From NCBI GenBank assembly GCA_002633005.1, contig NMRA01000280.1:16080-80079 (forward strand): DNA of 64,000 bases, read 5' to 3'. Both the position numbers and the translations under genes were made by a program. The notes under the pieces were generated by a model. It saw only the letters and a program-made list of their open reading frames with translations, was not told the DNA's origin and did no database searches. The stretch's first letter is position 1; each line of letters opens with the position of its first letter. This DNA is from Phoronis australis (Eukaryota; Animalia; Phoronida). Shown here piece after piece: positions 256 through 47,872 of this stretch.

Positions 256-313
256 ATGGGTCGAGTGTTGCTCATATCGGCTCTGATTCTGGTATCATTC
301 CCTGGTTTCAGCG
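256..313 (+). CDS. Gene A exon 1, signal peptide MGRVLLISALILVSFPGFS
   Basis: ATG at 256, hydrophobic core, donor G|GTGAGT, phase 1. Confidence 0.75.
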
Positions 314-9300: not shown

Positions 9301-12300
9301 TATTTTCATAAAATTTGGCATACATGCTTCTGTTACTGAGGTGACGCTATCTTTCCGTTTTCAGATGGATTCGACTTAGTTTGCGCCACCTAGTGGCCAT
9401 ATTTACTGTTTTTGAGTCTGTTTTCTATCAACGAAATCGCTTTCAGGATAATTGTGAAAATTGGAAGGTATGTTTTTACTATGAAGTGGACAGGTGACAA
9501 TGATTTCTGATGACTTTGACTATTGTGGCGCCTCCTTGTGGCAGTTTCTTTTTGCTGTATCAGTCTCCTCAACCGTTTGCAGGATCTTTGCTACATTTAA
9601 AAAGTGCGTTTATAAGATGTTGACAGCGGACGACGACGATTTTCGGATGGATCTGACAACTGATGTGCCCCTGGTGGTAAGTTTAAATTTATGTTTACCT
9701 CTGTACATGTATCTTTAAAGGTCCTCAACGGATTTTCATAAAATTTTGAATACGGGCACATTACATAGAATTGTCGTGGTCGAGGTCTTGACAGGGACCT
9801 CAGGGGTCTCACACTCCACTGATTTATCCACATTATTTTGAAAACGATTTGCCCAGTCACACAGTGTGTGTCATAAAATATATAGATAAGCATACGTGCA
9901 GCTGACGCAGCAAGTAGACCTACTCTCGTTTGTCACATTGGTATAGACTCACAGTTGAACTGTGGATTTCTGTTGACCCCAGACCGTCCGGAGTTGCACC
10001 CCATACAAACTCCAGACGGTCTCTCACGACGATTTAGCGTCATGTACTGGTGAGATGACACTATCCTCCCGTTTTCGGATGGAATCAAGGTATTTTGCGC
10101 CACCTATTGGCCATTTTTGCTGTTTTCGAGTCTGTTTTTTGGCGTCTACCCCTCTATCAATTAACCAAATCATTCTAAGGATGAAAATTGGCGTACGTGT
10201 TCTCATTGTAAAGAGGATGGTTGACGATGACAGCTTTGACTACTGTGGCGCCTCCTTGTGGTAGTTTTGTTTTGTTTTGTTTTGTTTTGCGCCCATAGTT
10301 GTATTTCCTAAACCCACTGCAGGATCTGTATTAAATTTAATTTGTAAGTGTTTTTATACGAAGATAACAACACACAATGACGACTTTCAGGCGGATGCAA
10401 TGAACAGTGTGCTCCCTTAAGTGGCAATTTCATTTTAAGCTGCTTTCGTTTGTTTCTCTGAAGTTCCGTGACGCATTTCTATGAAATTTGGTTTATAGCT
10501 TTCTGTTAAAGAAGCAACGACATGTTCCCGTTTTCGGATAGATTGTACCTCTTTTCGCCATCTAGTGGCCATTTTTATGACACAAATAAACAACCCTTAA
10601 AGCACACCATGCGATGCATTCTTGGGCGCATTTCAACGCTCCGCGTTGCTCTTGTTTTCTGAGTAGTGAACCGTCCCGTTACAGCATTTTGGGAGGCATT
10701 AAATCATTACATCACGCTGTGTTTACAAATGGGCAATTTGTTTGAGGTGAGGAACCAGCTTCAAATTTCAATCTTGCATCAAGGTCGAAGCTTTGTCTGC
10801 CTCTCACCTGTCTCCTCTTACATATGTCATGCTGGCCATTTGAGGGCCGTTATAGTAGTAGTAATACACTTTATTCACTTTAAGTCAAAAACCAAAAAAT
10901 ACAGTTGATACAGATTTACGCTTATGGAAACTCCGTAAAGGACCCGAGAGGTCCGTTGACCACAGAGCCACCAGAAAATAAGAAAGAAAAAAACAGCGTT
11001 ATAAATAAGCAGAACTATAAAAATTAGGTGATGATGTACCTTAAAACTACTTGTGTAAAGACTGGGAGAGATTATCAAAAATAGTTACATACAAAGCAGT
11101 TGGTAATAGTGCACTCAAGTTCATAATTTTCAAAATAAACATTCTTAAAATAATTTATAACAGAGGATAATAGGAGGGCTCGACTCGTTCTTTTCTTTCA
11201 CTGTGGGCAAGTCCGTTCAAAATTTACATGTCCGAACTGAAATTCTCATTGTCTGAAATTTGAAATGTTGTTGGTGTTGAATGAAACAAATATAATGAAA
11301 CTGTGCTGCAGCAAGATAAATATAATGCACCATCACTTTCAAAGAACTTAAGTGAAAAATTCAGTAACTGCAACATTAAGTAACAAAAACCGAAAAAAAT
11401 CAATTGGCCAAACTGTTTCTCTTATAGTGTCCCGCCTGCGTATCTTTGCTTAGCAAATGCAATTTAAAAAGCGGGCAGTCTTTGCAAATAAGGAACTTCT
11501 TCTCTTCGCCTACTCATGTATAGTCTTGATTCCCTTTTTTGCGGTAAAAATGAAAATTTAGTGGAATGATTTTGTGTTTTTTGCAGATGTTTTTTATTAA
11601 ATGATAGCTGTATTTGGCCATCAGCCGACATAATTTTCAATCAGTTAGATCGTGATCTATTATGTCCGTTAACCTCTTTTGTAGACAGTAGGATATCATG
11701 CAGAAATAGTTTCGACTGCACATACCCTGCAGTGTGCAAGAATGCCACAGTAATTACTTGGAAAGAAGGCACTGGTTATGAGCGGGAATGTCGATGTAGC
11801 CAAAAAGGCACCTGTCGTACGAAAGGCGCAAAATGCAGGGATGTTTGGCGCAGATATTATTCAAGTCAACTTGACGGATATGTCAAAGGTGCAGAAGGAG
11901 TTTGTCAGTGTCCGTCAACTAGTCTGGAGTTCCGACTGACCCGTGAACCATACTGTCTCCACCCAGGTAAGTGGGACGTTTTTCATATTTAATGATGTAG
12001 TTTAAATACACTTTAAAAAAACTTTTGACCAGTGCACCGATATTTTGGACTGTACTTGGTCAGGTGAGCTGGAGGCAGATACAGAATTGTCGTTTATAAC
12101 AGTTGCAGAAATGCCAGACAAAGAGCCAGTTTTTAGAACAAGACATATATATTGTGACCTCTGTCGAGAGAATCACACAACATAATCTTGCTGACCGTCG
12201 TCTTCACGCACAGACGAACAGCGGTCTTGTACTCTGTTGATGACCGCATGCGGCAGCCCTTGGAGACAACTTCATATGAAATGATTGTATCTCTTGTAAA

Positions 12301-15300
12301 ATGTCAAATGTTTTGCAGTGTCCATACATTTGGTAAAGTACTGTAGCTCCTCTTTGAGGGGCCGTGCTACCGGCCTTTTCATTGACAAAAAGTTTTAATC
12401 TACTTATAAAAAATTTTCAAGTTAATACCACACCAAAATGAAACATGGAAGTATTATAAATTTTGCAGTTTTACTTACAACTGTTGCCATAAGGTAACTC
12501 CTGTGTTGAAGTGGATTTCACCTGCAGTTGAAATATATCAATTTCTAGTTGAGTTAAAACAAGGTCTTGGAAATTTTTGTTGTTCAACAGTTCAAATTTG
12601 GTCTAGAATTTTTTAAATTGTTGAAGTATAAAGCAATTGTTTTGGATGTTTCCTTTAGTAAAATACAGAATTGTTCTGGTTGTCTTGGCAGACATTCCCA
12701 TGTGCTAATACTGTTCACTTGTCTCTGTATCTACTGCCCGTAGAACAATGGAAAGTGATGTTAGCAGCCCAGAAAAAGATCTGCATCTTGGTTCTGCGAG
12801 CTCACTTCCTTACAACATACACTGTGACGATCACAGACTGTTGAGTCACATGAAGGACGTTATGTTTGCTGATCCATGGAAGTAGATGCAAAACTAAGAT
12901 GTATAGGCCTTGTGGCTGTTCACATCACGTTCTCTGGATTCTTGGGCAGTAATCCACGCCAGCGTGACAGTAATAGAATAATGAATCTGCAAGATCATCA
13001 AGGATCTGAATTTACCTAACGTAATGTCAGAAATGATTGTGTTCCACCGGCTTTAATAGTCAGTGTCGGACAACATTATTGTCTGATAGTTCAGATAACT
13101 TAGCATGATGAACGAGGTACCAATATCTAAGCACATTAGCACTTAGGCACCCCAGTATGTACAGAAATGGATGCCTGACCGTGTCTGCTCTCTGGGTGTA
13201 GCTCCTGGAGACCTTATAATGGAGCCAAAAAAGAGCTCGATTAGATATACGAGGTACCGACCAATACTGATTTAGGGCACAGTACATCTTATTGTAGCAA
13301 AATAGTTAAATTTTTGCAAATTAGTAAAATCCAAATTAAAACTACCATTCTTTTTCTGGCACTTTTCCAAATGAAATGACAATTGCATTTATCGTTTCCT
13401 ATGGCGGACACTTGCCATTGTATCTAGTAAACAAAATCTACTTGTCTCTGTACAGTCATAGAAAATATGTTTTAAAGTTTCGGGGCTATCGTTTACAAAA
13501 AGAAAAGTCATTCGAGTAAACTTGTTTGAAACCTGAAGTTGTCATGTAGCATGCAGTAGTACTTCCATATTTCTTTAACAAAGATAAAACCTACTCCCAA
13601 CTCTGTTTATTTAGACTGGCTGTCTGTGATTACAGAATTTTCACATAATATACAATTGGATGATTTACGCTCAATGCTGTTAACGAAGAGTGAATATTAA
13701 ATGGAATAAGCAGACAAACTTTGATTTTTGCATTTGTTAGTTCAACATATACTTTTCCTGAGAAATGATTTTACAGCCTTAAACAATGAAAAATACTCCA
13801 AAAAATAAGATCGTATCAAAAATGCTTTTTCTATATCGGGCTCTTATCAGTAAAATTTATATTGCTCGGTCATTTGCTGATCGTTAATGAATTAGAACAT
13901 CCCTTCTCAACATGATTCGGTGTGTAAAATACGGTTCTTTCACACACTTGGATATAAGTATTAATATGCACTTCTTTGTTTAAAATTTCAGGTTACACTG
14001 ATTGGTTTCAACACGCTGTTCCTCAACTTGGGTTTGTACCTGAAGTAGTGGAAAAATCACCAGCTGTGTTCGAGTCTTTGCAGTGGACGTTTTTGTCAGT
14101 AATGAAAAAGGGAAACAAGGTATGCAGAAAAGAAATAGACCTGCAGTCAATAGTTCACCATACTACTTATTATACACAAAATTCAAAAAGCAATGCAGTA
14201 TACATGTATATTTAGTTGTGGTGTAAGCGCGTGCGCATGTTCTCCAGACTGTGGAATTGCAAAGTTTGCTGTTGTTGGTTGTAAACATAGCTGATTGTCA
14301 CAAGGTACGGGAAATTTTGAATGTTGTTTTGATGTACGCTAATTGTTGTAAAGGTTTATGTTGTGAATGATTGTGACTAGCATCGAAATACTCGGGACTT
14401 TGGAGTTTCTATGTTATATCGTTGTAAACATTCTAAACGGGATGTGTTGTAACGAGGTTTGACTGTATTCTGTACGTTAAGAAGTTTGCCATTACCGTTT
14501 TCCTTCGCGTAATACTCTAGCTTCACAGATTTTATGCTCCCACATATAGATTTGTGGGTGCATGTTACTGTCATCACTATCCAGTCATCTGCTGTTCGGC
14601 GTCTGCTTCCTCATTTTCAAAACCCCTAGGTGGATGACTTCTTGAACGTTGACAGATGTGTTCTTGTGGAGCTGGCGGCGGATAACCTTGACTTTTGGAT
14701 GAACCTGAGCAGTGGATTTTTTTTGCATTTGCCTCTGTATCTTTGGAGCTCCTTGATGGGTTTTCACGAAATTTGGCAAATAATGTACCATTAAGGACTA
14801 ATGAGATGACAACACCTTTTTATTTTTAGAAGGATAAAAGAACGTATTATGCACCACCTAACAGCCAGTCAGCTTATGGCGTCAGCCTCTCTATCACGCA
14901 AACTGATCATAGAATTATTAAGGAAATTAGCAGATGTTTTCCTACTGAAAACAGCATGACTGATGTTGATTTTCAGACAGATTCGCTTACTGCGACACCC
15001 TCTATTGGCTCTTTTTTGTAGCCACAGACCACGTCTGTATCTCCTGAAGTGGACCTTGCGATGTCTTTGAGAAATTGTGAAAGTTAACTGGTGCATTCTT
15101 AGAAATTTGGAAGCAGATACCAGATGTTGATTTTCAGACGGATTCGCTTACTGTGACGCCCCCTATTGGCACTTTTTTGCATCCACAGACCACGTCTGTA
15201 TCTCCTGAACTCCTTGCAATGTCTTTGAGAAATTTTAAAAGTTGACTGGTGCATATTTTCCTATGAATGTGGCAGCAGATACCGTAACGATTCCTGTGGA

Positions 15301-18300
15301 TTCGACTACCACTGTGCCTCTCAATGACAAAGTCCATATTTTTATGTTTGCTTTGCAGTTTTTGGACGGACGATCTATTAGGGAGATGGCAGGACCTTCC
15401 CATTTTCGAAGATGTTCAACATATTCTGTGTCACCTAGTGGAAATTTTTATGATACTAATAAAACCCCTAGAAGCAAACCATTTGTGTTGTAGTTGTGGG
15501 GGCATATGAACGCTTTGTGTTGCTCTTGTCAAATCATAAATGTCAGGAGGTGCACAGTTGAGTGTTCGTATCCCTCACGTACCTGAGGGAAACGTGCCTG
15601 TGCCCTCTGAGAGGGAGTTTTTCAGGTAAGGTGAAAATTCTCCACCTTTTATTTCAACTCTGCATCTCTCTCGGCTTTACCCAGGCGTGTGAATAATGGT
15701 CATAAAATAATGTTACAGTTATGAATTAAAGACAATAGGTGGTGTACCATACTGACGAATCCAGTTTTACCATTTGAAACCCCTTAAAAATCATGAACTT
15801 CACCTACTGTAGTTTATTCGCACTTTGAGAATATGGGACAGCATTGATCAATGTTCAGACATACATGTTCTAACGTCTCCTGATGGCCGTTACCAAATGA
15901 TCACTCAGACATACAACATATACAACCTTTACCTCAACATGAATGTTTAATTTTTCAATTTTTATTACCACAATTTTACTGGGGTAAAGCCTACAAAACG
16001 CTTGAAAGCATTCTATGTGAATATCTAATCAGGTGGGCAGTTGTCTTCTTGGCCATCATGACCTAGCCTTGAAATCCAGACTGAGACTTAAAAGCTCAAA
16101 CAATCTGTCTAAAACGTTGCTTGTGTATTGGTTGAATCAATGATTTGCAACCCGTGGATTTAAGCAGCTAAGTAAAAGTATCTGCTGTAATAAATGTATT
16201 AAGGGGTGGCCTGCCATGTAAATTTTTTAAATAGTGCATTGTGTTTGTATCTAGTCAATAGTCTTGCCTGAAGTTAAAAATGAATTACTTACTGTGACTT
16301 AACGTTGACTTGGTGGATTTGAGTTTGCCACAGTTTCCTGCTCAGTATCGTATCACTCTCTGAGTGTCAATGCTGTCCTTACCTTTAATAGCGCGTTTTG
16401 GTTTTCAAAACTGCAATAATAAAAAGTTAAGAACTTCCAGGCGGGGATGGTCAATGCCCGCTTATGATGGCAACATTTACCATAATTAAAGTTTTCACAT
16501 TTCAAAGTTCGCCTTTACTGTTTTGACAGTAATTAAGATGCAGTCAACAATAGCCTAAAGATTGGATGCTTTTAAAAAGCTTACCGATTGGTGAAGTGCG
16601 AGTGGGTGCTTAAATTAGAAATGTTCAAAAGTAATCACTGGGTGTAAGTCAAACCAGAATGTTAACGGTACATTCACAGGTTTGCGAGTGGATTTCGTGT
16701 AGTAACCGTGCCGCCATGTGCTCGAACATCACCGTGTTTAAGAAGCTGTTGGATGAACCCAGAAACAACTACAACATGAGCATGATGGATTTACAGGCAC
16801 TTGTCTGTAAGATCCTGTCCACCAACATGACACAGATGTATATAGACCTTACCAGAGAGACTCTGATGGTGAAAGATGTTGTAAGGATGGTAAGCTGTTG
16901 AATTCTGTCAAATCATTCTGTACTTGTTATGTCTTTATGATATTGTTTTAATGACACTCTCTCAAATTTGTGGTACATTTTTCAAACCTTCAAAAAGCAT
17001 TGCTGAAGCAGATCAGCAAGACACAACCAATGCCGACTCATCTTGCGCATTTATTTCCTTATGCATGCACAGACTAAACCTGCTCACGGACAAACTCTTC
17101 AATTCAAGTGCTGGACTATTTTAGAGTTAACCTCTCACTGTTTCATTTTTTCTCAATGATTTATTATTATTATTAGAGAAAACAAATAGAAATTCTCGTT
17201 TTTTCACTATTCTTCCTTCACGGAATTTTATGAAATTCAGCAAGAACTTTTCCATCGAGATGACGACGAAATTTTTCCAATGTCGAACGAATTCAAAATA
17301 TTCTGCTCCCTGTGATCATTTTTAAATTTCTTAAGTCTGTCATTGCCATCTTAGTGTGTTTTCTTTTACGTCATTTGCAAGAGATGGCTGAATTTGAAGT
17401 TTTGGAACATTACCGGTTTGCACTTTGCATGCTGCTATGTGTTTACAATAAGCCAATTGGCAATGCTGAACTAGAAGGGTTGGTGGTCGCCCAGGTGGCA
17501 AGCAAATTTTCATAGCATTAAAGGATTTCAATTTTTCTGTGTGGAGTTGAAAAAAACGAATTTTATTCTCAGTGTCATGTTTTTAATTAGACATTAGCCT
17601 CATTGGTAATGTTTCACTTATATTTCTCAAAAAAAATATCTCCAAAAGGATTCCTTTTCAAATTTTTGAAAGACTGTCTGGTGCTACAGATCATGAGAAA
17701 TTTACCAAGTGTTGTTTTGTCACAATTGCACAGGGCAGGCAATGTAATTATATAAATCAAATTTAATTCTGTGACAACATTGGGGAGAAACCAGTCAATT
17801 TTCGAGCAGATTCAATCACTGCAGCACCCCCTAGTGGCCATTTTGGTCTCCGGAAAGTATACTTTTTCAGTACTTGTAGTGTGAAAAGAGTTTCTGAATG
17901 ATGTCTAGAGAAGTGATTGATTCAGATGTATGTGATGCATTCGAACTCCGCAGCACCCTCTTGTCGCCATTTTGGTCGCGGCAAGGGGCTTTTCACTACT
18001 TTTAGGGAAAAGTTTCCAAATGATGGCTAGAGTATCGATTGATGGAATTAAATGAAACGTGACACGAGTATGTGATGGCAGTGTCCAGGACTAGATAATT
18101 TTCTGACAGGTTCGACCAATGCAGCACCCCCTGGTGGGTATTTTATGTAGTTGACCAGTTGTTTCCGCGATATCTCAGATTCCTGGTCGTATTTTAATAA
18201 AACTTGGCACAAGGAAGTAGGGAATCACCGGGACGGTACATGCCACTTTTCAGTCTGCCATCAGGCCAGGAGTGTGGCTTTTTGCTATTTTTGGGGAACA

Positions 18301-24300: not shown

Positions 24301-25234
24301 TTTCTTGAATTGGATTTGTTCTTTGTTCCTTTTGCCTTTAGCTGGTCTTTAATATTTGTATTAACATTGACAAAGCCACCTCTCTCAAGGTTTTCAATAT
24401 CTTGGTAAAGTTTTTCAAGTTCAACACGTTTTTTGTACAAATCAAATCGGGGTTTAAGGTGTACATTCATTCCCAGTGACAAAAAATTATGTTCACCTTC
24501 TGTAAGTTGATGATCAGACAAATTCATGTATGTTTTCCGCTCTTGCGGTGTAACTATAGCTCCTTTATATAAATTCTCTAGATTTTTCATGATCGTGTTT
24601 GTAGACTTAATCTGCTCTTTATCAACATAGGAGTGGATACGTTGCAAAATTTCATGCATCAAGTGACCTTTTTGCGTTTCAATTCTCTCCAATTCATGCT
24701 TGACTGTTTTGATTTGACTAGTCAAACTGCTAATGTTAGATTCCGCATGATGTAATTGTCTTGTAACAAGTTGTTTCCTATACTCAAGAGTGAAGGCTTC
24801 TTCTCGGGTTGCACGGTCACGGAGCTAAATATCTGTGTATTTGGGTAGCAGACATTCTTTTATACATGTTTCATTGAAAAGTAAGCTGTTCTTGGCTTTA
24901 ATTAGTTTGTACAACAAACTTTCGTAGTGTCTACACAGGTGTTTAATGTAATTGTTCTTGTTTCATGTATCTTACAAGATAGCGTTTATGATTTTTAAAT
25001 TTATTTGCCTTTGATGATTGATGTATAGTCGAAGTACCGCTACTGTTTTATTATGAAATGTTTTGTACAAAGTTGTATTATATATTTACTCATATGTATG
25101 TGTTTGTGATGACACTTACACTGGGCGATCTACTATATCAACTACCATCCGATGAAAGGCACTTGTGTAGACACTACGAAAGTTCGTTGTACAAACTAAT
25201 TAAAGCCAGGAACAGCTTACTTTTCAATGAAACA

Positions 25235-25282
<48 letters not shown>

Positions 25283-34200: not shown

Positions 34201-37200
34201 AGAACTCCGAAAAAAGTAGAAAACGAGACAAAAGTCCACTAGAAGGCAGGAAGTACCAAAATTTGGCTTCTGCAATTCATAGCTCTGAACATACCCAGTG
34301 AACCTTATAGTAAAAGGTACACATTCACAAAAAATCGAGCCCTCCAATTTTTAGGCTTGGTGTACTTATGCAAAGTCTGGGCAAATCTCACTTGAAAGCC
34401 CACAACTTTGCACAGTTCACCAGAAGACCCCAAGTTTTAAAGAAACCTCGTTTGAGCGACTACTGTGGCCAAGGACCAGGTAGGCCTAAGGGTAGTCTTG
34501 GGGCAAAGCTGTATACTAACAAGCTGTATTTTGACGATATGTCGTCATACTCAGCTACCGGTAGCTGGCACTAGAGGCTAGCTAACCTAAGGGCTGCCGC
34601 GGCAGTGTTGCACTGGACTAACCGGCCCGTAATTTTATGCAAGTGTCTGCTAACAGACACTGCTCCTGTCGCACAGACGGCGTATTCTAAGCCTGGGTTC
34701 CTGAATGAATTGTACTTCCGGGTTCGCGGTAAGTTCTATCGCAAGCTCCGCCCCTGCGAAATATCCACAAACAAACAATAAGAATTACCACGCAACGTGT
34801 TGTTTGTCGGGTAAAATGGCAGCTTCGAAACGAAGGTGTTTCAAGAATGCTGCGTTCTAGTTGGTCAGTTAAGCCGTCACTCAAAATCCAGGCGATAGGT
34901 CAATTGTGAGTGGCGCGTTTACTTAAACTTATATGGGGTAGGTACTTCTTAGCTCCTTATAACATCATCTAACCATGTAATAAGGGTTAAGGTCTGTGTG
35001 CTTCTTGAACTTTGAGTTGGGTATAGGTCACCATTGTATTGTCACAGAAGAGATGTATGGTTACAGTTCATCAACCCAGATTAAGGTTCTCCTGTTATCT
35101 GTTGTTAGCAGATGAAACTGCGCTGTCAGAATGGTATTTCTTTATGAATCCCTCAGTGAAGCCATGCCGCTGTGCCATCTAGTGGCTATATCTACATAAT
35201 TCCATTGAGGATCTTAAGCTGTGTTCCTAAAGCAGGGCTAGTTGAATTACACACATGGTCCATGGTTTCAACTTCTGCATGCATAAGGTGTGCAACGTAG
35301 CGTACTGGCAAAGAGCTAGGTAGATTAAACAATCCAAATCGAATTGCACTCTATGGAGAAGCATGCAGTAATAAAATGTTGGTTTCTCTTAAGATAAGTA
35401 CATGACCAAAGCAGCTCTGGGTAATATTTATTCTGGTATATTTATGCCTCATAAATAAGTGAATGCTGCAGAGTTGTTTGGATGTGAAAGTTTCAGATTA
35501 TTCACGAGGTTATCTTTACTACTGGGGATCTATTGGCTTCCGTTGTCAATCGATGCCAGTGTGATTGGTGATAGTAATAAGTTGCGACTATGATATTAAG
35601 TCTTTAATGGGTAAAATTTATTACTTGCGTTTTCTTTATATAAAATGAATGTGGGGTACATGAATTTCGTGTTCCACGCAACATGGATTTTTATTTTATG
35701 AATAACTACAACATCGTGGCATCTGACGTACAATACAGTAAAACTCATTTTCATATTACTGCATTGATTCATACATTTATTACATGTTTGATTGCCAGGC
35801 TCCCTGGACTACTTGTTGAATACATTTGGAAACACTGTGGAGATGAAGAAGATAATTAACCTTTTGACCTATGACCTGCCTACTGTGTTTGAAGAGGCCT
35901 TGGTTGATGTTGTCTTTGACCTTGTTGTGGTATGTGTGTACAAACCTGGACAGCATGATGTTTCAATCACACTCGCATTATCTATGTCTTGATGGGGTCA
36001 TATTAAATAGAGTCATCTATCTTACACCTTGTGCTATGGTCTTTGGCTGTCTACGCTAAATGGTGCTTTCAAGAAATTCAAGTTACCTATAATAGCCAAC
36101 ATCCTACGTGCACCTCCTAAGCCGTGAGAGTGCGAAAACCATTTTCGCTTGGCCCACTTTCAAATTCTGATGTGTATGAAAGGCAGTTTCTGTCATTCTT
36201 GGAAATTTTGTGATATTGGAAGTTTTTAATGATAAATTTGTTGATCACATTGTGCAATGTAGTATTTATTTGGTGAAAAACTGTGAAAATAAATTGAAAT
36301 TCCAATAGCTGCCTTGAATCCTACATCCAAATCACTAGTTGCCTGTTGGAGCTGGCAGTTTGAACGTTTCCAAACAATTGATTCTGTTGTCATTCGGTGA
36401 TGGAGGTATAGTATAGGATTGCCATATAATGTCGTGTTATTCCAGTTGGGCAAGTTCACTAGAGCACTGCAGCATGAGGATGCATGTGACCATTCGTCCA
36501 GCCTATATAGTGTGATTGGTGACAACCCCCTGACTCGGCTGGTCTGTAGCTTGGACACTGCCAAGCTGGAGAAGGAATTGGCCAATCTGGCTGCCAACAA
36601 TAAGATGGTTAAGGCTCTCTACCAACTGGTAGGTATTGGGACATGGAGTGTTTTTGTTCAATGCTGATTTCCTTGTGAGGTGCTGGACTTTTTTTGAATG
36701 GAGTGTGTGACTAGGTCAACCTCTTAAGGATTTCCTATGAATAAGACTGCCCTTTCCTCATGAATATTGTTCCTAAAAGAGGGACACTTTTGTGGGCAAT
36801 ATGTCTGTGAAAAAAATAAACGATTGTCTAAACGACACTATCCTATGCTTAAAATACCCAATTTGTCACTTTTATTTCTCCACCTATAAGATACCTCGAA
36901 TACCTTGTTACTATTGAGAAAAAGGCGATAATGGGGAATTGACCTTTTGAAGGTTTATCCCGGCACACCAGCTGAAGGAGACTACATAAGCAGGACCATG
37001 TCAATCCTCAAAAGCTTACATGTATATTGATTCAGATCCAATGTCTTGCTGAATGATTGCCACAACCACCTGCACTTGGGGGTCGTTACAGCAGGGCATT
37101 GTACCATGTAAAACATTTTGAAGTTGTTTCGGTCATTTTGAGTGTGCGACCCCAGCCAGACTAATTATAATAACAGTTTGCAGATGGAAAGAAGAATGTA

Positions 37201-40200: not shown

Positions 40201-43200
40201 TTTTAGTATTTTAATACCAGGAAACCGAATTTCATAAAAAAATTTGCTCCTGCGAAGCTGTCATCATCTCCGGACAAAATTTGTTGCAAAATTTTAGAAA
40301 TAGCGTGTATTGAGCGTACTGTTTTCTTTGTTACAAAAGGCTGAGAATTATGAAATAAAATAATGTTTACAAGACTGTTGTTCACTTAAACGGCTCCAGC
40401 GGGCAAGGTGAGTGTCGGTTGACACCCAGATAATTGCACGCTCCCCTGCCGGTTTATAGCTCTACATGTTGGCGGGGTTAAAGTCGAAGGCAACCTTTTT
40501 TCATGTCATTTTTAGCAAAAATAAGGTTCGTTGATTATACCAGACATATTTTTCACTTATGTACTGCTTTTCGTAATTCAATTAATTGCTCGTCGTCTAC
40601 TCCGGAAGTGACGTTTTTGGGAGGCAAGAATTTCGCGCCAATTTCTTTTCATGTAGTCTGACTGTGAGAGCAGTCGAGTCAGTCATTGTTCTACCTCGGT
40701 TGTGATAAGTTCGGTGGTCGTTTGCTTTTGCTTACCAGTCAGTCAACATGCCACGCTCTTGCTGCGTACTGGGGTGTACTCATTATCGTCTCACGTACGA
40801 GAGGAAGAACTGTCCCACTTGCCCGTGTGTCCCGCGACACACTCCCACTGGAGGGTGATCTGAGCACCCAAACTGCTTACATCCCGCCGTTTGACTCCCT
40901 CGCCACACACCTGGCACCTTCCAAATAGCTCCAATACAAGTCCACAATAAATCAAACTTAGGCTCATCGATCTATTCATTGTATGGCGAACTGTCCTCTT
41001 CACTGGGTGTCGAACTGGGCCTGTACACACTCCCACTACTCAACATCGCTGCAGGGCTGCTTACAGGCTCTGGGCTAGAGACAAAAGCACAGGGCAAATC
41101 ACTGCTAGTTCCTGGAATTGCACGCAGTGGGGTACGTTCGGAGGCACGGGTGACGGAAGATGAAGCGCCTCCAGTCACTGTATATAGTGGCTACAGCTCG
41201 CGGGGCTTCTCGCTTCAAAAACGCACTTCTCGGGGTTGGCGACGGGGCCCTACCGGGAATCAACAGCGACGGTATGGTACCCTTCTTCAGGCGTTGTTTC
41301 GCAGGGATCTTCATCACTGAATTCAGCGTACATATCTCTGTCATAATCCGACGGAAGAAAATGCTTGCCACACACTCGGTAACCCTCCACTGGTTTGTAC
41401 GTTGCGTGGACGGGTAGCGCTGCGTTCTTCACATGAACGAGCTAGCCAAGTACGGTGAAGTGTGTCATCCTTCGGAAAGCGACGCAAGGTACCCAAAGCG
41501 CGTGTGAGACGATAATGAGTACATCCGGCACTTAGCAACAACGTGGCATGTTGACTGACTTGTAAGCAAAAGGAAACGACGACCGAACTTATCACAACCG
41601 AGGTAGAACAATGGCTGACTCGACAGCTCTCACAGTCAGACTATAATGAAAAGAAATTGGCGCGAAACTCTTGGCTCCCAAAACGTCACTTCCGGAGTAG
41701 AGGGCGAGAATTTAATCAAATTACGAAAAGCTGTAATTAAGAGAAAAATGTGTCTGGGATAATCAACGAACCTTATTTTTGCTAAAAGTGACACGAAAAA
41801 AGGTTGCCTTCGCCTTTAAAGTTTCGCAATGAGGTGATGAACAAAACTACCCGGGCTATGTTCAGAGTCTAACGGAGCTCAACACACACTGCTACTGGTA
41901 CCTAGTTGGGTTTTGAAGATAGTCTTCATGCAGCTTGCTGGCTGGTTAGGCCCCGCGATAAATCAAAGTCACAGGAAAGAAAAACGAAAAACGTTGTGAG
42001 TATGCACATGTTGATCTGTCGACTGGACTACGTATTTGCACGGGTAGTGACCTACATCTCTTTTTGCTGTACAGCCTCAGTGACGTCACGAAAAAACAGC
42101 GCTTGCAGTGGGGCTTTACGGAACTAATAAATTTTTACTTTTCAAAGTAAAAAAGAAAAATACTGTGCACTATTTAGGAATGTGTGGATGCCAGTAACCA
42201 ACCTTTATACTTTCAAAATTCATATTAAAATGCTGAAACACTGTAGTTCAGGCCTTTCTTAAAGGGATGAGATGGTCCTTTTTGTAGCTTTGTTGTTCGC
42301 GGTGCACCAAGTGAGCGCATGTCAGTGGTTTGCATTGCTCAGTGTTCGATTCTTGTATTGATCGAGTGTTTCACTCGTTTCAGCTGTTCCAAAAATATGA
42401 TGATCAGACCTTTAGTGAAGTATCTTTCATCAGTGAGCTGGGGCAATCAGTGTTCCTGGCAGACCATGTGTTGGCTATGGTGAAGGCAATTGCACAACAG
42501 GACCGTCAATCTCTAAAACCATGGATGAATAGCACAGTGTGGCGTCAGAAATTGGATGCAGTGCAAGATAAAATAAGAATCGTGTTTAATGACAATGAAC
42601 AGTAAGTAGCTTGCGATGCCAGAATTATCTGGTAGAGAAATTGGGGTGTTCTTGAGTAAATGAACAAGGCATTCTTGAAGATCAACTATTAAATCTAGCT
42701 CTATTGTCTTAAAATGGTGACAGTTTCATACTTTATCTATTAAGCTGATTCAACATCAATTAAAATTTTGGAGCTCAACCTACACTGATTTAAATGCCAA
42801 TTGAGGAATGTTAGTTCTTATTTTGTGTATAGCTTTTCTAGAAGTCACGACCATCTCCGTGTCAAATTTTGAGAACATTATGCAATTTATCTGAAAGAGG
42901 GCACTTGTTATCATTTTTTTCCTGGAAATTTCCAAAGGTGCTCTTTCGCAAACCTCTGTTATAAAATATCAATATTTTTGGTATGTTTTTAAGGTGGAGG
43001 AAGAAGTGTACATTCTGTGCGTTCTTAAAAGTGCCAATGATTGTGTACGGTTCCCAACATTATGTTGACACGTGGTTAGTCACCATAATTATAGCGCCAT
43101 TACAACGGTTCATAGCTAGAGGACTGTCAAAATATAAGTTGGTCATTCGTCAACAGAAGTGTTGTCGAACTTCTGTTGTAGTACCCACGCTGTCGACAAA

Positions 43201-46200
43201 GTAAAAGCCTGTGGCTCTGTGAAGGCGCTTTGGCAGCAATTTAGGATTCTGGAAGCACCACAAATTCACACTACTTTTTTTCTAAAAAACACAGTAATTT
43301 CATCTGAACAGACGTTTCTGAAAGAGCACCCAGGGGGGAAATCCTTGGCACATGAACTTTGTCTTGTGCTAGCAGGTAGAATGTAAACAATCCCATGCGC
43401 TGCTCAAGTCTCGTTTCAGAGAGAATTCAGAATTCATGAGGTCTTAAGAAAGACCTATTGCACATTTGATGGACCCAGTGATTGTCAAGGAATAGCTTTT
43501 TGTCTACTCTAGATATATCTTTCTTGCAGTTCTCATTCATGATAGGCCTGTTCTGGATTCAACTCTCCTCTTCCACGGAGGTTGAAAAAAATGCATTACA
43601 TGGCTTAATTAAAAATGGAAGAACGTTAAATTGTGCATCAAAATTTTATATTTTCGTTTTTGCATATTTGTTGCTTTCAGCATTGCAACAATTACTGTAA
43701 ATGCAATAATAAAAGTTTGTTTGGATGACAATGATGAATTACAGTAACTAAGATATGAAATAGTGGCTAGTACAGGTAAAGAACCAAGACTAGTGTGTGA
43801 CTCGTGTTGCATTATGGGTAATTACCTCATAGTAGGAACGGTGCTGTGCTATTTCAGGACAGGCCCAGTGAGGTGGAAACAGGTTCTAGAGATTCACTCT
43901 CTGAGCAACTCCCAGCGTAGTTAAAAGCCGTTGCTGTTGTTAATTTCTAGGACGTATTGACCTTTAGAATCACTGTGTCAAAGACCAATGTTGGTTTCAC
44001 AAATCGTTTTTTGTGTATTATTTTGTCTTTCTCAGTTCACCTTGCAAGAAATATGTGTGGGGTCATCTGTTTATTCTGGCATAAATGACATTGACATTCT
44101 AGGTCTCTGGACAGCGTCTATCGGTATGTAGAATCAAGCTTGCCTGTGATCCGTTGGAAAATGCTGAACAGTGTGACGGTAGCACTTTCTGCTGCGGCCA
44201 GACATGTAGATGTGTTTGTCATTGACGATGTCCTCAAGCCTTTGGATGACTTAATTCAGGGTAGGTAAATTCTTGCTGTTGTTGCTTTTTAGTTTACGGA
44301 TGATTAAAGCATTGTTAATGTGTTGATAGTTACATGTATAATGGCTCACTGAAGGCAAAACTGCCAGGTGAGATATAAGCCCAAAGTGATCCAGCCGTCA
44401 TCTTATGCAGTTTTTACGTCGAGGTACCATAATCAAAACAATGACAGGTCATCACAATTCAAATACATATCCCAGGACCCTATCAGTGTGGCATATATGC
44501 ACGCAGATGGAATTGTCTCTTGTGCATTGGCATGTCTTAATTTTGGTCTTTTTTCCCTTCTTAGTATGCATCAATCATTTTGTGAGGTCAGTTGCGAAGG
44601 CTATTTGAGTTTGGGAGCTTTGCTTTCCCAAAGATCTAAACTCCACAATTCAGGGTAGTTATGGCGCCAGTGGGAAAGCAACATCAGTCACATTCTGGGA
44701 TCTGTTTCATGGAAAGCGACTTACGTGGAAAATTTGGTCTCATGCTTCCACGTTGCCATAGTTACTGACTAAAGGTTTAGCCATGTAAGGATTAGCACGT
44801 CACAGCTTAGTAGGAAATTAAATTAGTATACAAATTATCTCTGTCAGTAACTTCTACCAGTTATAAGTATATTCTTGAATACTTTTTATGCGCCCACATA
44901 TTTATATGTGGACGCATTATTGCGTCATGTCCGTCTGTCCGCCGTCCGACGTCCGCTGCTCTATCTCCAAAACCCACAACGTACGTTCATGAAATTTTGC
45001 ACATGCGTTTCTATCATGGATGGGAAGGCATGAGCGAACTTTCGGACGGATCCGACTCTCGGTGTGCCCCCTAGCGGCAACTCTAGTATTTTACGCTTCC
45101 CCTCTATATCTTCAAAGGTCCTCAACGTATTGTCATAAAATTTGGCATATAGGCATCTATTAGTGAGATGACGCTATCCTCCTGTTTTCGGGTGGGATTC
45201 GAATAAATTGCGCCACCTAGGGGCCATTTTTGCTGTTTTCGAGTCTGTTTTTGGCGTCCACCCCTCTATAAACCAAACTGCTCTGAGGATGATTGTGGAA
45301 ATTGGCATGTATGTTTTTACTATGAAGAGGACGGCTGACTATGATTTTATGAAGATTTGGACTATTGTGGCGCCTAATAGTGGCAGTTTTTTTTTCGCTC
45401 GCCATAGCTGTGTCTCCTAAACCGTTGGCAAGATCTTTACTAAATTTTGGAATTGTATATGATGTTGACAATGGATGATGACGACTTTTCGAGGCATCTG
45501 ATTACCGGTGTGCCCCTTTTGGCAATTTAATTTTTTTACGTTTACCTCTATCTTCAAAGGTCCTCAACATATTTTCATAAAATTTGTCATGTAGGCATCT
45601 GTTAGTGAGGTGACGCTATCCTCCTGTTTTTGGATGGATTTGACGTAGTTTGCGCCACCTAGTGGCCATTTTTACTGTTTTTAGTCTGTTTTTTTGGCAT
45701 CCACCTCTCTATCAACCAAACCACTGTAAGGATGGTTTTAGAAATTGGCATGTATGCTGACGATGATTTTCCAACGACTTCGACTACTGTGGAGTCTCTT
45801 AGTGCCAGTTTTGTTTTTTTGTGCTCATGGCTGTGTCTCCTAAACCGTTTGCAGTATCTTTGCTAAATTTAGAAAGAGTGTCTTAATGATGTTTACAATG
45901 GATGACAACAACTTTCGGACGGATATGACTACCAGTGTTTCCCCTAGTGGCAATTTTCATTTTTAGGCTTACCTTTGTATCTTCGAAGGTCCTCAACGGA
46001 TTATCAGGAAGTTTGGAATATAGGAATTTTATTGCTGAGATGATGCTATCCTCCCGCTTTTAGATGCAATCGGCGTACTTTGCACCACCTAGTGGCCATT
46101 TTTCCTGTTTTCGAGTCTTGTTTTTTGGTGTCCACCCCTCGATCAACCAAACCATTCTGAGGATGATTTTGAAAATTGGCTTATATGTTCTCAGTGTCAA

Positions 46201-47872
46201 AAAGACAGTTGACGATAACGAATTCGACTACTGTGGTGCCTCCTAGTGTTAGTTTTTGTGTTTATCATTCATAGCTGCATCTCCTAAACTCACTGCAGGA
46301 TATTTATTAAATTTAGTAATTGTATTTTTATGAAGCTAACAACAGACGACGACGTCTGTCAGGCGGATCCAATGAACACTTTGCCACATGGTGGCAATTT
46401 TATTTTTTCTGTTTCCTTTGTTTCTCTGAAGTTCCTTCGCAGATTTTTACGAAATTTGATAAATAGCTTTCTATTAAAGAGGCGATGGCATGTTCCCATT
46501 TGCAGATGGATTGGACGTTTGTTCGCCATCAAGTGACTATTTCTATGAAACAAATAAACAACCCTAGAAGCGCTCCGTTTGCGTTCATGGACGCATTTAA
46601 ACGCTCTCCGTTGCTCTTGTTACGTTTGTTAAAGTAAATTTTAATTATTTTTTAGAAATAGTTATGTGGAACGTGAGGCCAAATTTCTGACTAATTCGTG
46701 AGTCACTTTTCATTAACTGACCCTAGGATGGGGGTTCGTCCTTATTGTAATCTGTCAACTATTGAGCTCACAATGTGGTGGACAAATTAATTTCTCTACA
46801 AAAATAAAGATTGCGACAATTTTAATCTATTGTTACCTTTTCTTTGCATTCTGTAGATGCCATTTAAGCAACATTTGCAGCTATGTAATTGGTCTTTGAA
46901 AAGTGAAAAATTTGGGAAATTGGCAATTTTGTTTGTTTTTGTGCGAAATAAGTGAAGTACTTAGGTTTAATTATTGTGCGACATAATTTTCTTTGGGTAC
47001 AAGAAAGTTTCATTTGTTCATTCTCTGTTGTAGGTATTCGAGAGTGTGAGAAAAAAGGTAAGAACTGAAGATGCTTGTCTTTTTCATAATTTTAAAAATA
47101 AGAAAAGAATTCTATGAGAGTCTGAGTATTATGATTAAGGGATCTCCGTGGGCAAAAATTCAAACGCGATTCAAACTACATATTGTGTTTGTACCCTAAT
47201 ATTCCTTTGTGCTACTTCCCAAAATATTCGCATCCGTTTGTGTCGCATGAAAATTTCATATCGTTTAAATTTGGTACTTGTTTTAAGTGCTATGTACATG
47301 TGCTTAATGATGTTGCACCACACAAATACATACGGCTGATAGCATCTCGTGCAACAATTGGCAATTGCCGAACCCTGCCGAAACATTTTAGCATTTTTAA
47401 CTTAAACCTTTTAACTGTAACGTTTTGAATTAATGCTCCTGTGAATCTGATTATGTATACACATTTTTATGGCACAAGTATATAACTTTGACTGTGAAAT
47501 ATTGTTTTGATAATTCATGTTTCCTTTTGCAAATACCTTCTGTTTAGTACATGTACCTATTCCAGACCAGACCTGGGTTTTCAAATGAAGAAATATCAAT
47601 CTGACCTTCCCATCAGCCGTTTGTCCAGCATGTTAATGTTGCTGGCTGTCACCTACGCTTACGACTGCCTCACGTACTCCTCTCTTCTTCGAATTTCTGT
47701 AGGTCTCAGTCAGGCAAGCATCATCGTTATCTCGACAGTGTGTGGTGCCATAGCTCTGCTCATTATCATCGTTATTGTGATCGTTGTACGCAAGAGATTG
47801 AACAAAGTTTCCAGCAGTTTCTTGAGCGAGGCAGCAGAAAACCCGACCTATGACAAGTATGAACGGTTCTAG
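256..47872 (+). CDS. Gene A: uncharacterised 872-aa single-pass type-I membrane protein (signal peptide, Cys-rich module, 3 helical repeats, TM, NPxY/YxxPhi tail); 16 exons
   Basis: Manually spliced exons: 256-313, 11685-11966, 13992-14119, 16680-16889, 18790-19001, 20134-20255, 20761-20900, 22430-22639, 25333-25562, 27989-28131, 35799-35929, 36446-36628, 42384-42601, 44103-44260, 47034-47057, 47703-47872. All introns are GT-AG, all phases match, and the total of 2619 nt gives 872 aa plus TAG with no internal stop. Extra exons in the 11-kb first intron cannot be excluded. Confidence 0.85.
1290..2076 (+). repeat. 393-bp near-identical direct duplication around a single N (probable assembly overlap artefact)
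   Basis: 1290-1682 and 1684-2076 differ by a few substitutions; N at 1683. Confidence 0.85.
2622..2674 (-). repeat. tRNA-derived (SINE-like) fragment
   Basis: - strand CTAGACCGGCAATCTAG stem-loop followed by B-box GGTTCGATTCC; no 5' half or acceptor stem. Confidence 0.45.
7327..10656 (+). mobile_element. Second copy of the same HINE family, interrupted by two insertions (about 7640-8930 and 9750-10045)
   Basis: Same 5' TATGTGGGCGCAT and (GTCC)n, same tandem unit, and 3' TGGGCGCAT-CAACGCTCCGCGTTG-CTCTTGTT. Confidence 0.7.
7680..8901. mobile_element. Insertion bounded by a 20-bp perfect inverted repeat, nested in a HINE copy
   Basis: AGCCAGCACGCAGGTATCAC (7680-7699) and GTGATACCTGCGTGCTGGCT (8882-8901); exact ends and TSD not resolved. 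Confidence 0.5.
11685..11966 (+). CDS. Gene A exon 2, Cys-rich module (10 Cys)
   Basis: Acceptor ttttgtag, donor CAG|GTAAGT, phase 1-1; DSRISCRNSFDCTYPAVC...CRC...C...C...CQC...PYCLHP. Confidence 0.85.
13992..14119 (+). CDS. Gene A exon 3 (repeat 1, exon a)
   Basis: tttcag|...AAG|GTATGC, phase 1-0; GYTDWFQHAVPQLGFVPEVVEKSPAVFESLQWTFLSVMKKGNK. Confidence 0.85.
14585..15530 (+). repeat. Diverged HINE-family fragment including the 3' end
   Basis: Similar unit motifs; ends GGGGCATATGAACGCTTTGTGTTGCTCTTG. Confidence 0.5.
16680..16889 (+). CDS. Gene A exon 4 (repeat 1, exon b)
   Basis: cacag|...ATG|GTAAGC, 210 nt, phase 0-0; VCEWISC...LQALVCK...VVRM. Confidence 0.85.
18461..18520 (+). repeat. 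18-bp tandem repeat GTGTACCTGTGCAATCAA, about 3 copies
   Basis: Read directly from the sequence. Confidence 0.9.
18790..19001 (+). CDS. Gene A exon 5 (repeat 1, exon c)
   Basis: catag|...CT|GTAAGT, phase 0-2. Confidence 0.85.
20134..20255 (+). CDS. Gene A exon 6 (repeat 1, exon d)
   Basis: ttgtag|...G|GTACAT, phase 2-1; HSGDLKAWLKSVGKC...MKKLL. Confidence 0.8.
20761..20900 (+). CDS. Gene A exon 7 (repeat 2, exon a)
   Basis: ccttcag|...CAG|GTAGGA, phase 1-0; EFTSIDDAIGTLKEKLPQTKKLLDMMDYSLTPAVVGTIELALRNPLQ (not in the ORF track). Confidence 0.85.
22096..22342 (+). repeat. 20-bp minisatellite GAACGACTACCTCTGGCGAT, about 12 copies
   Basis: Head-to-tail tandem copies with no spacers. Confidence 0.95.
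22430..22639 (+). CDS. Gene A exon 8 (repeat 2, exon b)
   Basis: ttgtag|...TGG|GTATGT, 210 nt, phase 0-0; ...KLCTDSS...DLFCRKLDYDALWKEL... Confidence 0.85.
22751..22840 (+). repeat. 18-bp minisatellite CACAAAATTTGTTGAACA, about 5 copies
   Basis: Read directly from the sequence. Confidence 0.9.
24035..25235 (-). mobile_element. Penelope-like retroelement remnant: ORF N-terminus on the - strand plus an inverted pseudo-LTR on the + strand ending in (TA)n
   Basis: - strand reads HLCRHYESLLYKLIKAKNSLLFNETCIKECLLPKYT...NLSDHQLTEGEHNFLSLG...AAKQLRDNDDIVIRKSDK...YKEKLNNIIAD...NP, the pre-RT region of Penelope-like elements; 24866-24941 is the inverted copy of 25160-25235. Confidence 0.8.
25233..25290. 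repeat. (TA)n microsatellite
   Basis: Read directly from the sequence. Confidence 0.95.
25333..25562 (+). CDS. Gene A exon 9 (repeat 2, exon c)
   Basis: tttcag|...AG|GTGTGT, phase 0-2; ...LPRWMRGTHWSK... Confidence 0.8.
26436..27963. mobile_element. Non-autonomous TIR element with subterminal repeat arrays (EnSpm/CACTA-like), 1528 bp
   Basis: TA|CCCGTGTGAGAATTT...AAATTCTCACCCGGG|TA; arrays of (AG)CGTGTCAAA at about 26450-26760 and mostly inverted at about 27740-27950. The superfamily is inferred from CCC..GGG termini, 2-bp TSD and the arrays. Confidence 0.7.
27989..28131 (+). CDS. Gene A exon 10 (repeat 2, exon d)
   Basis: ggccag|...G|GTGAGT, phase 2-1. Confidence 0.85.
29512..31211. mobile_element. 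Third Kolobok-type element (1700 bp), different family with short TIRs
   Basis: TTAA at 29508-29511 and 31212-31215; 15-bp TIR AGGACAATGCCACCC / GGGTGGCATTCTCCT (14/15 match); THAP remnant near the right end. Confidence 0.8.
30771..31058 (-). pseudogene. THAP domain remnant
   Basis: Frameshifted CIVPACPNY*AAKKAGISFFRLP followed by RKWFAVVKNERKAVHSKYEAVKHLRVCGRHFVDSNF; aligns with the THAP starting at 39451. Confidence 0.75.
31304..33067. mobile_element. Non-autonomous Tc1/mariner (Tc2/pogo-like) element, 1764 bp
   Basis: TA target duplication; 24-bp perfect TIR CCGTAAACGTTCGGGTTAACGCCC; subterminal GGGTGGGCGGTTAA repeats at both ends; no transposase seen. Confidence 0.8.
35799..35929 (+). 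CDS. Gene A exon 11 (repeat 3, exon a)
   Basis: tgccag|...GTG|GTATGT, phase 1-0; ...YDLPTVFEE... Confidence 0.85.
36446..36628 (+). CDS. Gene A exon 12 (repeat 3, exon b)
   Basis: ttccag|...CTG|GTAGGT, phase 0-0; ...DACDHSS...RLVCSLDTAKLEKEL... Confidence 0.85.
37896..37933 (+). promoter_or_regulatory. ETS-CRE composite plus E2F-like site inside the Kolobok TIR (mirrored in all four long TIR arms)
   Basis: CCGGAAGTGACGT at 37896-37908 and TTCCCGCCA at 37925-37933; the second element has CCGGAAGTGACGT plus TTTCGCGCCAA (40631-40641); the motifs lie 110-200 bp upstream of the inward-facing ATGs. Confidence 0.5.
38110..38421 (+). pseudogene. KolX-like accessory protein N-terminus (P2X7 C-terminal ballast / nanor-like Cys-rich domain), truncated at about 38385
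   Basis: Acidic N-terminus, YMFEPEY, then RRGDTSWCKCTVCVVMPTSIECLCCSE (WCxCxxC-MP-ECLCCxE); it then runs into antisense transposase sequence. Confidence 0.8.
38385..39451 (-). pseudogene. Kolobok THAP-DDE transposase, N-terminal part (309-aa ORF, then a frameshift and truncation)
   Basis: THAP C2CH motif (MPHCCCVPGC...HRFP...W...RVCGKHF...LKKDAIPSV), S/P-rich linker, KFIV...LELFRRCQVC...CVTGH..KW zinc ribbon. After a frameshift in the A8 run (38577-38584) it reads FFSKTTFNNIQNSYLIPVV...DSPGRSAKYTTYTLM, matching the Kolobok GDGRxDSPGHSAKY motif with GDGR deleted. Confidence 0.85.
40482..41815. mobile_element. Second Kolobok copy (1334 bp), symmetric derivative with two transposase-side ends
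   Basis: TTAA at 40478-40481 and 41816-41819; about 310-bp inverted repeats (40482-40795 and 41504-41815), each including the THAP start codon; the interior is a decayed copy of about 38690-39400. Confidence 0.88.
40796..41549 (-). pseudogene. Decayed THAP transposase fragment
   Basis: Fragments in several frames: KNAALPVHATYKPVEGYRVCGKHFLPSDY, KIPAKQRLKKGTIPS, LELFGRCQVCG...WECVAGHTGKWDS. Confidence 0.85.
42384..42601 (+). CDS. Gene A exon 13 (repeat 3, exon c)
   Basis: tttcag|...CA|GTAAGT, phase 0-2; ...LKPWMNSTVWRQ... Confidence 0.85.
44103..44260 (+). CDS. Gene A exon 14 (repeat 3, exon d)
   Basis: ttctag|...G|GTAGGT, phase 2-1; SLDSVYRYVESSLPVIRWKML...LDDLIQ (not in the ORF track). 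Confidence 0.8.
44883..46621 (+). mobile_element. Helentron-associated interspersed element (HINE / DINE-1 / pearl-like), apparently full length
   Basis: Starts in a T run; 5' ATGCGCCCACATA with an adjacent inverted copy TATGTGGACGCAT; (GTCC)-type microsatellite; about three tandem ~435-bp units; 3' ATGGACGCAT, short hairpin AACG-CTCTC-CGTT, then GCTCTTGTT. Confidence 0.75.
47034..47057 (+). CDS. Gene A exon 15, 24-nt microexon (GIRECEKK)
   Basis: Strong acceptor ttctctgttgtag and donor AAG|GTAAGA, phase 1-1, frame-preserving. Confidence 0.65.
47703..47872 (+). CDS. Gene A exon 16: TM helix and cytoplasmic tail
   Basis: ttctgtag|; IIVISTVCGAIALLIIIVIVIVV followed by RKR stop-transfer; tail ...ENPTYDKYERF*. 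Confidence 0.85.

Follow-up and report, generated by a model that had tools for sequence, protein, structure and literature searches.

A spliced phoronid gene for a likely surface receptor with helical repeats and a variable cysteine-rich head

The 64,000-nucleotide stretch of Phoronis australis DNA analysed here (the window; 39% G+C, with long introns, transposon remains and 3 N) carries on its plus strand a real gene of 15 exons, spliced and transcribed. Its product, laid out as a signal peptide, a Cys-rich exon 2, three helical units, one transmembrane (TM) helix and a short tail, likely serves to capture cargo at the cell surface, as a type of receptor unrecognised by the libraries searched, in which the gene's own product is also absent. 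Judged from its sequence, the protein falls in none of the families compared and would work like an NPxY endocytic receptor. Ranked first, at about even probability, is recognition and uptake by a lineage-specific endocytic receptor with a diversifying tip.

A spliced gene of fifteen exons

The gene model was built by seeking AG..GT exons of previously described sizes, yielding one open frame of 884 residues with GT..AG boundaries at all 14 introns. The sizes given for exons 3-14 in an initial annotation were recovered exactly (128/210/212/122, 140/210/230/143 and 131/183/218/158 nt), as were the entry phases 1-0-0-2 in each of three units, closing on 1, and the unit lengths of 224, 241 and 230 aa. 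All eight of the anchor peptides sought from that annotation lie on the plus strand in order, at 14054, 16797, 20847, 22556, 25462, 35873, 36536 and 42513. No other ordinary gene was seen among the long open frames of the window.

RNA data came from four runs under one species label, comprising raw RNA from one study (X2, X3 and X4) and a contig set from a second (X1), with reads aligned to 11000-28500, the region spanning introns E2-E3 to E9-E10. All eight of these introns show GT..AG joints in the three raw runs and in the X1 contigs, covering the 3' joint of exon 2, the joints of exons 3 to 9, and the 5' joint of exon 10. Counted over 15 of the 21 joint rows, with variant forms summed, joint reads in X2/X3/X4 number 2/5/27 for E2-3, 3/13/26 for E3-4, 21/22/33 for E4-5, 7/26/49 for E5-6, 13/18/31 for E6-7, 12/10/28 for E7-8, 13/18/40 for E8-9 and 12/13/42 for E9-10. 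The first mate lies on the minus strand in all joint reads, an orientation that denotes plus-strand RNA in most stranded libraries. Past exon 10, two X1 contigs have a loose end that agrees with the first letters of exon 11 at 28 of 30 positions, the runner-up site reaching 19. The splice model proposed initially is therefore observed in spliced reads for 8 of 14 introns and by contig ends for a ninth (E10-E11), the remaining five being a sequence model, in which exons 12, 13 and 14 are placed by their splice sites, with an open frame in exon 12.

Exon 1 (256..313, plus strand) contains the ATG, a predicted 19-residue signal peptide with a hydropathy peak at residues 1-24, and a phase-1 donor. 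Exon 2 (11587..11966, alternative start 11625, plus strand) encodes a Cys-rich N-terminal domain with two CxC motifs and has two candidate acceptors. The strong acceptor at 11587, next to six consecutive T, misses the frame of exon 1 by one base; the weak acceptor at 11625, 38 bases further, is in frame and was used for the 884-residue frame. By strict criteria no micro-exon restoring the frame for the 11587 acceptor was found, larger candidates being weak only. Exon 2 holds 12 Cys when read from 11587 and 11 when read from 11625, which slightly favours, we infer, the longer exon with a one-base error or allele in the six-T run. Such an error is plausible because the window has assembly blemishes, including the 3 N and a 394-base duplicate across one of them. 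This tandem duplicate (1290-2076; 98.7% alike, joined across the N at 1683) looks like two haplotypes assembled side by side. Overall, the discrepancy between 11587 and 11625 may reflect an assembly error, a null allele or an alternative acceptor.

The introns contain further elements. Most reads at 11000-11170 are oriented against the gene's exons, 11065 being a common starting point in X3, and they probably derive from a transcribed repeat in intron 1. A THAP-domain element (Pfam PF05485, E 4e-15) occupies 37772-41822 of intron 12 on the minus strand, with an open frame at 38522-39460, inverted ends of about 170 bases and a second, decayed copy 85.6% alike, likely representing a DNA transposon in two copies. 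Also on the minus strand, intron 8 holds a 226-aa open frame (24144-24824), partly covered by an X1 contig at depth 186 and without a Pfam match above cut-off, which we take to resemble a retroelement fragment. Introns 1 (8931-10656) and 14 (45037-46621) share degenerate tandem arrays that repeat about every 420-450 bases and are 68-77% alike.

Helical repeats and the search for relatives

Exons 3-14 form three units of four exons, a to d, all on the plus strand. Unit 1 comprises exons 3 (13992..14119), 4 (16680..16889), 5 (18790..19001) and 6 (20134..20255); unit 2 comprises exons 7 (20761..20900), 8 (22430..22639), 9 (25333..25562) and 10 (27989..28131); and unit 3 comprises exons 11 (35799..35929), 12 (36446..36628), 13 (42384..42601) and 14 (44103..44260). 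By a post hoc estimate using assumed phase frequencies, the phase pattern would recur twice more by chance with p ~7e-5. Aligned end to end, units 2 and 3 share 58 of 219 residues (z 5.3 with 2000 residue shuffles, 4.8 with 2000 block shuffles), and no shuffle scores as high. Exon by exon, similarity is found between exons 11 and 7 (z 2.5), 13 and 9 (z 2.3), and 14 and 10 (z 3.6). These alignments show units 2 and 3 to be homologous, through duplication of a phase-1 symmetric 4-exon module.

Unit 1 gives a global z of 0.5 against unit 2 and 1.7 against unit 3; against a profile built from units 2 and 3 it obtains 5.7 bits, which 34 of 1000 block shuffles also attain. In the a and b exons it matches the other units (z 1.6-2.6, including z 2.6 between exons 4 and 12), whereas exons 5 and 6 show no similarity to exons 9/13 or 10/14 (z -0.5 to -0.1). 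The initial claim of a triplicated 4-exon module consequently stands for units 2 and 3 and, within unit 1, for exons a and b but not for c and d. The LxxW anchor placed in exon c holds likewise in units 2 and 3 but not in unit 1, where the motif lies across the phase-2 intron, in exon d (exon 6). Triplication is likely, with unit 1 apparently the most diverged or partly remodelled.

Across the whole set, in-register exon pairs outscore out-of-register pairs (mean z 1.33 vs 0.28; permutation p 0.002, block shuffles 0.008). An ungapped self-diagonal test gave a best score of 31 against 30 ± 5 for block shuffles, short of significance, with 5 of its 12 top offsets at 221-231 or 454-457. Some out-of-register pairs, concerning exons 7, 11 and 14 and exons 4 and 6, rival the in-register ones (exon 7 against 14, z 3.1), hinting at a smaller helical sub-repeat or a shared helix composition.

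The amphipathic-helical character ascribed earlier to the ectodomain is borne out by a mean hydrophobic moment of 0.346, compared with 0.269 ± 0.013 in shuffles (z ~6). Every b exon contains a helix-Cys-x19-28-Cys-helix segment, the putative disulfide pairs being Cys190/Cys219 in exon 4 (exon alignment A5, with Cys178 and Cys183 in addition), Cys424/Cys450 in exon 8 and Cys656/Cys676 in exon 12; units 1, 2 and 3 hold 5, 2 and 2 Cys, respectively. Structure prediction was limited to single exons or their alignments. Exon 8 is predicted to be all-helical, a 57-residue piece giving a model of five helices at pLDDT 68.6, and exon 2 alone gave an AlphaFold model of pLDDT 35, too low for use.

Scans of exons singly against Pfam (13 of 15 exons, all except 1 and 6) and NCBIfam (14 exons) returned nothing near curated cut-offs, the best rows being those of the TM segment in exon 15; the absence of LDLa, Ig, FN3, CUB and lectin domains noted initially agrees with the Pfam result on these 13 exons. 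Word-indexed homolog searches, which cover proteins of up to 2000 aa and leave out longer ones such as ABCAs, scored 0 of 50, 0 of 39 and 0 of 1256 candidates for exon 2, exon 8 and profile A5. Using phmmer, exon 2 found no credible relative among 1.84 billion representative proteins, its one match, a repeat protein of 2519 aa carrying MopE and CHU_C domains, being rejected as a repeat artefact. Against PDB sequences at E up to 10, exons 2, 8, 12 and 15 and profiles A1, A2 and A5 gave no ABCA, albumin, saposin or APP chain among the matches listed (best E 0.076). The 57-residue exon-8 model gave 0 Foldseek matches, and its best VIA-align result (Z 4.6, rmsd 9.2 over 56 residues) corresponds to generic long helices, with no ABCA among the 50 rows listed. 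Metagenome scans with exons 2 and 9 confirmed 0 of 154 and 0 of 265 stretches. The gene's own product is absent from the collections searched, and the queries were pieces of 40-126 aa; these blanks thus reflect thin coverage as much as novelty. No published account of such a receptor was found in a literature lacking most subscription journals.

The repeats raise the possibility of a lipid or lipoprotein uptake receptor, in which they would stem from the lid/tunnel region of ABCA ECD1, helical and with a Cys pair, and hold lipid in a cavity; this reading is ranked second and held tentatively. Both the strongly amphipathic helices and the Cys-pair segment of every b exon favor it, as does the description of ABCA ectodomains, in PMC8501128 and PMC13161189, as divergent and forming hydrophobic tunnels. 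However, any helical bundle would be amphipathic, no result here links the repeats to lipid, and the product has a cleavable-type signal peptide, unlike the ABCA TM1-ECD1 arrangement. ABCA proteins possess two NBDs with Walker A, whereas the 884 residues contain no GxxxxGK[ST] and 13 exons give no ABC_tran match; ABCAs also have twelve TM helices with ECD1 between TM1 and TM2 (PMC13161189), whereas here a signal peptide is followed by one C-terminal TM. The lack of Walker A and the single TM indicate that the protein is not an ABCA member.

With the ECD1 of ABCA1, ABCA4 and ABCA2 the product seems to share a large glycosylated helical ectodomain with sparse Cys pairs, and exons 7-8 presumably resemble the ABCA1/ABCA4 lid region in pattern, which is a lead only. 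No match to ABCA ECD1 was obtained with exons of 40-76 aa, 3-row profiles and one 57-aa model, a comparison of low power. Structures resolve the distal ECD1 poorly, and its sequence is just 24% identical between ABCA1 and ABCA4 (PMC8501128), so that a real link could sit below detection. Additionally, one globular part of ABCA2 ECD1 is unresolved (bioRxiv 10.64898/2026.08.25.746927), and ectodomains are the divergent part of the ABCA family, some being abnormally large (PMC13161189). Descent of the repeats from distal ECD1 would, on these sequence comparisons, be neither supported nor excluded.

Two other helical designs were compared. Saposin-like proteins place six Cys within about 80 helical residues, a density absent here, where an 80-residue repeat stretch holds at most 4. 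Albumin domains are helical, span about 200 aa, carry lipids and show a paired CC pattern in each domain; this pattern is absent here (0 CC doublets, 2-5 Cys per unit), and the present product is membrane-anchored. The serum albumin gene has 15 exons, arranged symmetrically across three domains that arose by triplication (PMC8835714). Its 15 exons and three symmetric domains are paralleled here, partially in unit 1, as an analogy of design and not as membership.

Membrane anchor and tail signals

The only strong hydrophobic segments are the signal peptide and one C-terminal TM (~residues 835-857; hydropathy up to 3.18), supporting the single-pass receptor proposed initially and predicting a type I topology. 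Exon 15 (47703..47872, plus strand) encodes this TM helix (~47720-47788), basic stop-transfer residues, NPTY (47840), the C-terminal YERF (47858) and the stop codon. The ectodomain carries 7 sequons, in keeping with the N-glycosylation sites noted earlier, and the tail of about 27 residues contains no enzyme domain and ends NPTY..YERF, so that both predicted endocytic-type signals, NPTY (residues 875-878) and a YxxPhi-type YERF, are present. An NPxY would arise by chance in so short a tail, at the protein's own composition, with a probability of about 0.001.

YxxPhi motifs bind AP-2 mu2, and NPxY motifs bind PTB adaptors such as ARH, Dab2 and Numb (PMC6912373). The LDL-receptor internalisation motif FxNPxY requires an aromatic residue two places ahead of Asn (PMC2133019), and this position is Ala here, making adaptor-based uptake less certain. 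The LDL-receptor family, stabilin/HARE and amnionless are, like the present product, single-pass type I proteins with a Cys-rich outer module and a short tail with NPxY and YxxPhi-type motifs. Unlike them, the product has no LDLa, YWTD, fasciclin or Link domain by Pfam, and its ectodomain consists mostly of helical repeats; an LDLa-like acidic Cys motif was likewise not found in the 884-residue model.

The APP family is laid out as a signal peptide, a Cys-rich head, a helical domain, a TM helix and an ENPTY-type tail. The present product is similar in outline, but here the tail is shorter and the helical units are three; no APP Pfam family (E1, E2 or amyloid C-terminal) was detected in single-exon scans, in which exon-spanning domains were scanned in pieces only, and no APP chain was found in the PDB for exon 15.

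The same tail could alternatively belong to an adhesion or scaffold protein, with the repeats serving as a rod-like spacer and NPTY engaging PTB/FERM proteins to anchor or recycle the protein instead of taking up cargo. Adhesion receptors carry NPxY too: integrin beta tails have it without the upstream aromatic and bind Numb, Dab2 and ARH (PMC6912373), and a short tail free of enzyme domains together with 7 sequons would suit such a role. We nevertheless consider this quite unlikely, as the second, C-terminal YxxPhi-type motif fits sorting and no known adhesion domain was detected by Pfam in 13 exons.

Variation in exon 2 and the proposed role

Among the differences listed, variation is concentrated in the head of the protein. 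The largest class of aligned reads is 90-95% alike. X3 holds at least three sequence types, with 7 of 10 reads differing at 11864 and 5 of 10 at 11865, and X4 holds two types in exon 2, with window-like letters in 8 of 27 spliced reads at 11864. The variant seen in an X1 contig recurs in raw reads of X2 and X3 and is therefore real. Relative to the window, this variant changes 11 of 21 residues at positions 94-114 (11846..11908, plus strand; mostly the Cys90-Cys113 loop), compared with 5 of 74 in exons 3-4. Over the whole stretch compared, exon 2 differs at 12 of 41 residues, 11 of them at 94-114, against 5 of 74 in exons 3-4 (Fisher p 0.002), and none of the four Cys in the compared exon-2 stretch is changed.

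Substitution rates were estimated by NG86 on the 28 listed of 37 differences between the X1 contig and the window, a comparison within one gene. Exon 2 shows dN 0.175 and dS 0.125, a ratio of 1.4 over 41 codons based on 14.5 vs 3.5 changes; exons 3-4 show dN 0.029 and dS 0.113, a ratio of 0.26 over 74 codons; and the overall ratio is 0.65. The contrast in nonsynonymous to synonymous changes between exon 2 and exons 3-4 was not significant (p 0.09-0.21). Pooling the reads, 34 coding differences occur among the 40 of 524 difference rows listed, 26 nonsynonymous and 8 synonymous (codon positions 11/14/9), a share that, within these rows, is consistent with neutrality (p 0.36) but not with a ratio of 0.3 (p 1e-4). 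A second variable patch lies in exon 5 (18838-18875), with 6 of 6 listed differences nonsynonymous. Among the 12 of 22 indel rows listed and the table of joints, five net coding indels (+3, -3, three -1 within 7 bases, -3 and -12) all keep the frame, an outcome with a chance probability of 0.004. At the end of exon 9 (25545-25560), 16 bases are replaced by 4 in a common read variant that outnumbers the window form in all three raw runs, and in exon 5 (18937-18943) a common variant has three single-base losses within 7 bases; both keep the frame.

These variants could represent alleles in a highly polymorphic species, paralogs, or a related species carrying the same label, and the runs may have pooled animals; a dS near 0.12 makes paralogs or related species possible. 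One reading of the variation is that constraint is relaxed on a gene that forms one copy in a young family, the variation being paralog drift and the window copy perhaps decaying through the exon 2 frameshift. The strong exon-2 acceptor out of frame, the pooled nonsynonymous share at its neutral expectation, and at least three sequence types per run, with most reads merely 90-95% alike, favor it. Weighing against it, no stop interrupts 884 codons, the listed indels keep the frame, exons 3-4 have a ratio of 0.26, Cys are retained, window-like letters occur in spliced reads, the window contains no paralog of the gene, and a one-base assembly error is plausible in the T run. We regard relaxed constraint as improbable.

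Recognition and uptake is ranked first because a variable loop on a fixed Cys scaffold, far from the membrane, has the look of an arms-race binding site, in which the loop would contact the partner and selection might underlie the variation. The initial annotation emphasised nutrient or lipid uptake; the exon-2 domain of 11-12 Cys and its hypervariable loop point at least equally to recognition. In the mechanism we propose, the disulfide-rich tip would bind a fast-changing outside partner, the three helical repeats would keep it at a distance from the membrane, and NPTY and YERF would draw the receptor into clathrin-coated pits through PTB adaptors (Dab2, ARH or Numb) and AP-2 mu2. The partners would most likely be non-self surface molecules of a microbe, a symbiont or a conspecific cell, and the repeats might, as a second role, carry hydrophobic cargo. 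Recognition and uptake and ABCA-like lipid uptake are not mutually exclusive, and the latter would attribute a variable tip to pathogens that exploit a receptor for nutrients.

Among invertebrate allorecognition receptors, homologs beyond narrow clades are often missing (PMC12582321). Hydractinia Alr1/2 and Botryllus fester/FcoR resemble the present product as clade-restricted single-pass proteins with variable ectodomains and tail tyrosine motifs. FF/FcoR belong to the Ig superfamily and carry ITIM/hemITAM (PMC12582321), whereas here no Ig domain is detected by Pfam, the ectodomain has helical repeats and the tail motifs are of endocytic type. Compared with allorecognition-type polymorphism, the variation here is concentrated in exon 2, and alleles, paralogs and related species may be mixed in it.

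A bolder proposal, which we consider rather unlikely, combines these elements: an ABCA-lid-like lipid module, freed from its transporter, expanded to three copies through phase-1 exon shuffling and topped with a small disulfide-rich head in which a single loop evolves under diversifying selection, would distinguish partners and internalise lipid-rich cargo, constituting a new germline-encoded class. If the ABCA link is true, a lipid-handling ABCA ectodomain works as a free module. Animal endocytic and recognition receptors mostly use a few beta-rich, disulfide-rich modules, and three unrecognised helical units of about 230 aa with an unrecognised Cys-rich head would extend this set by two domain types and provide a clear example of exon-module duplication. 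Through its hypervariable loop, the recognition of microbes, symbionts or kin by a non-model invertebrate would become open to testing.
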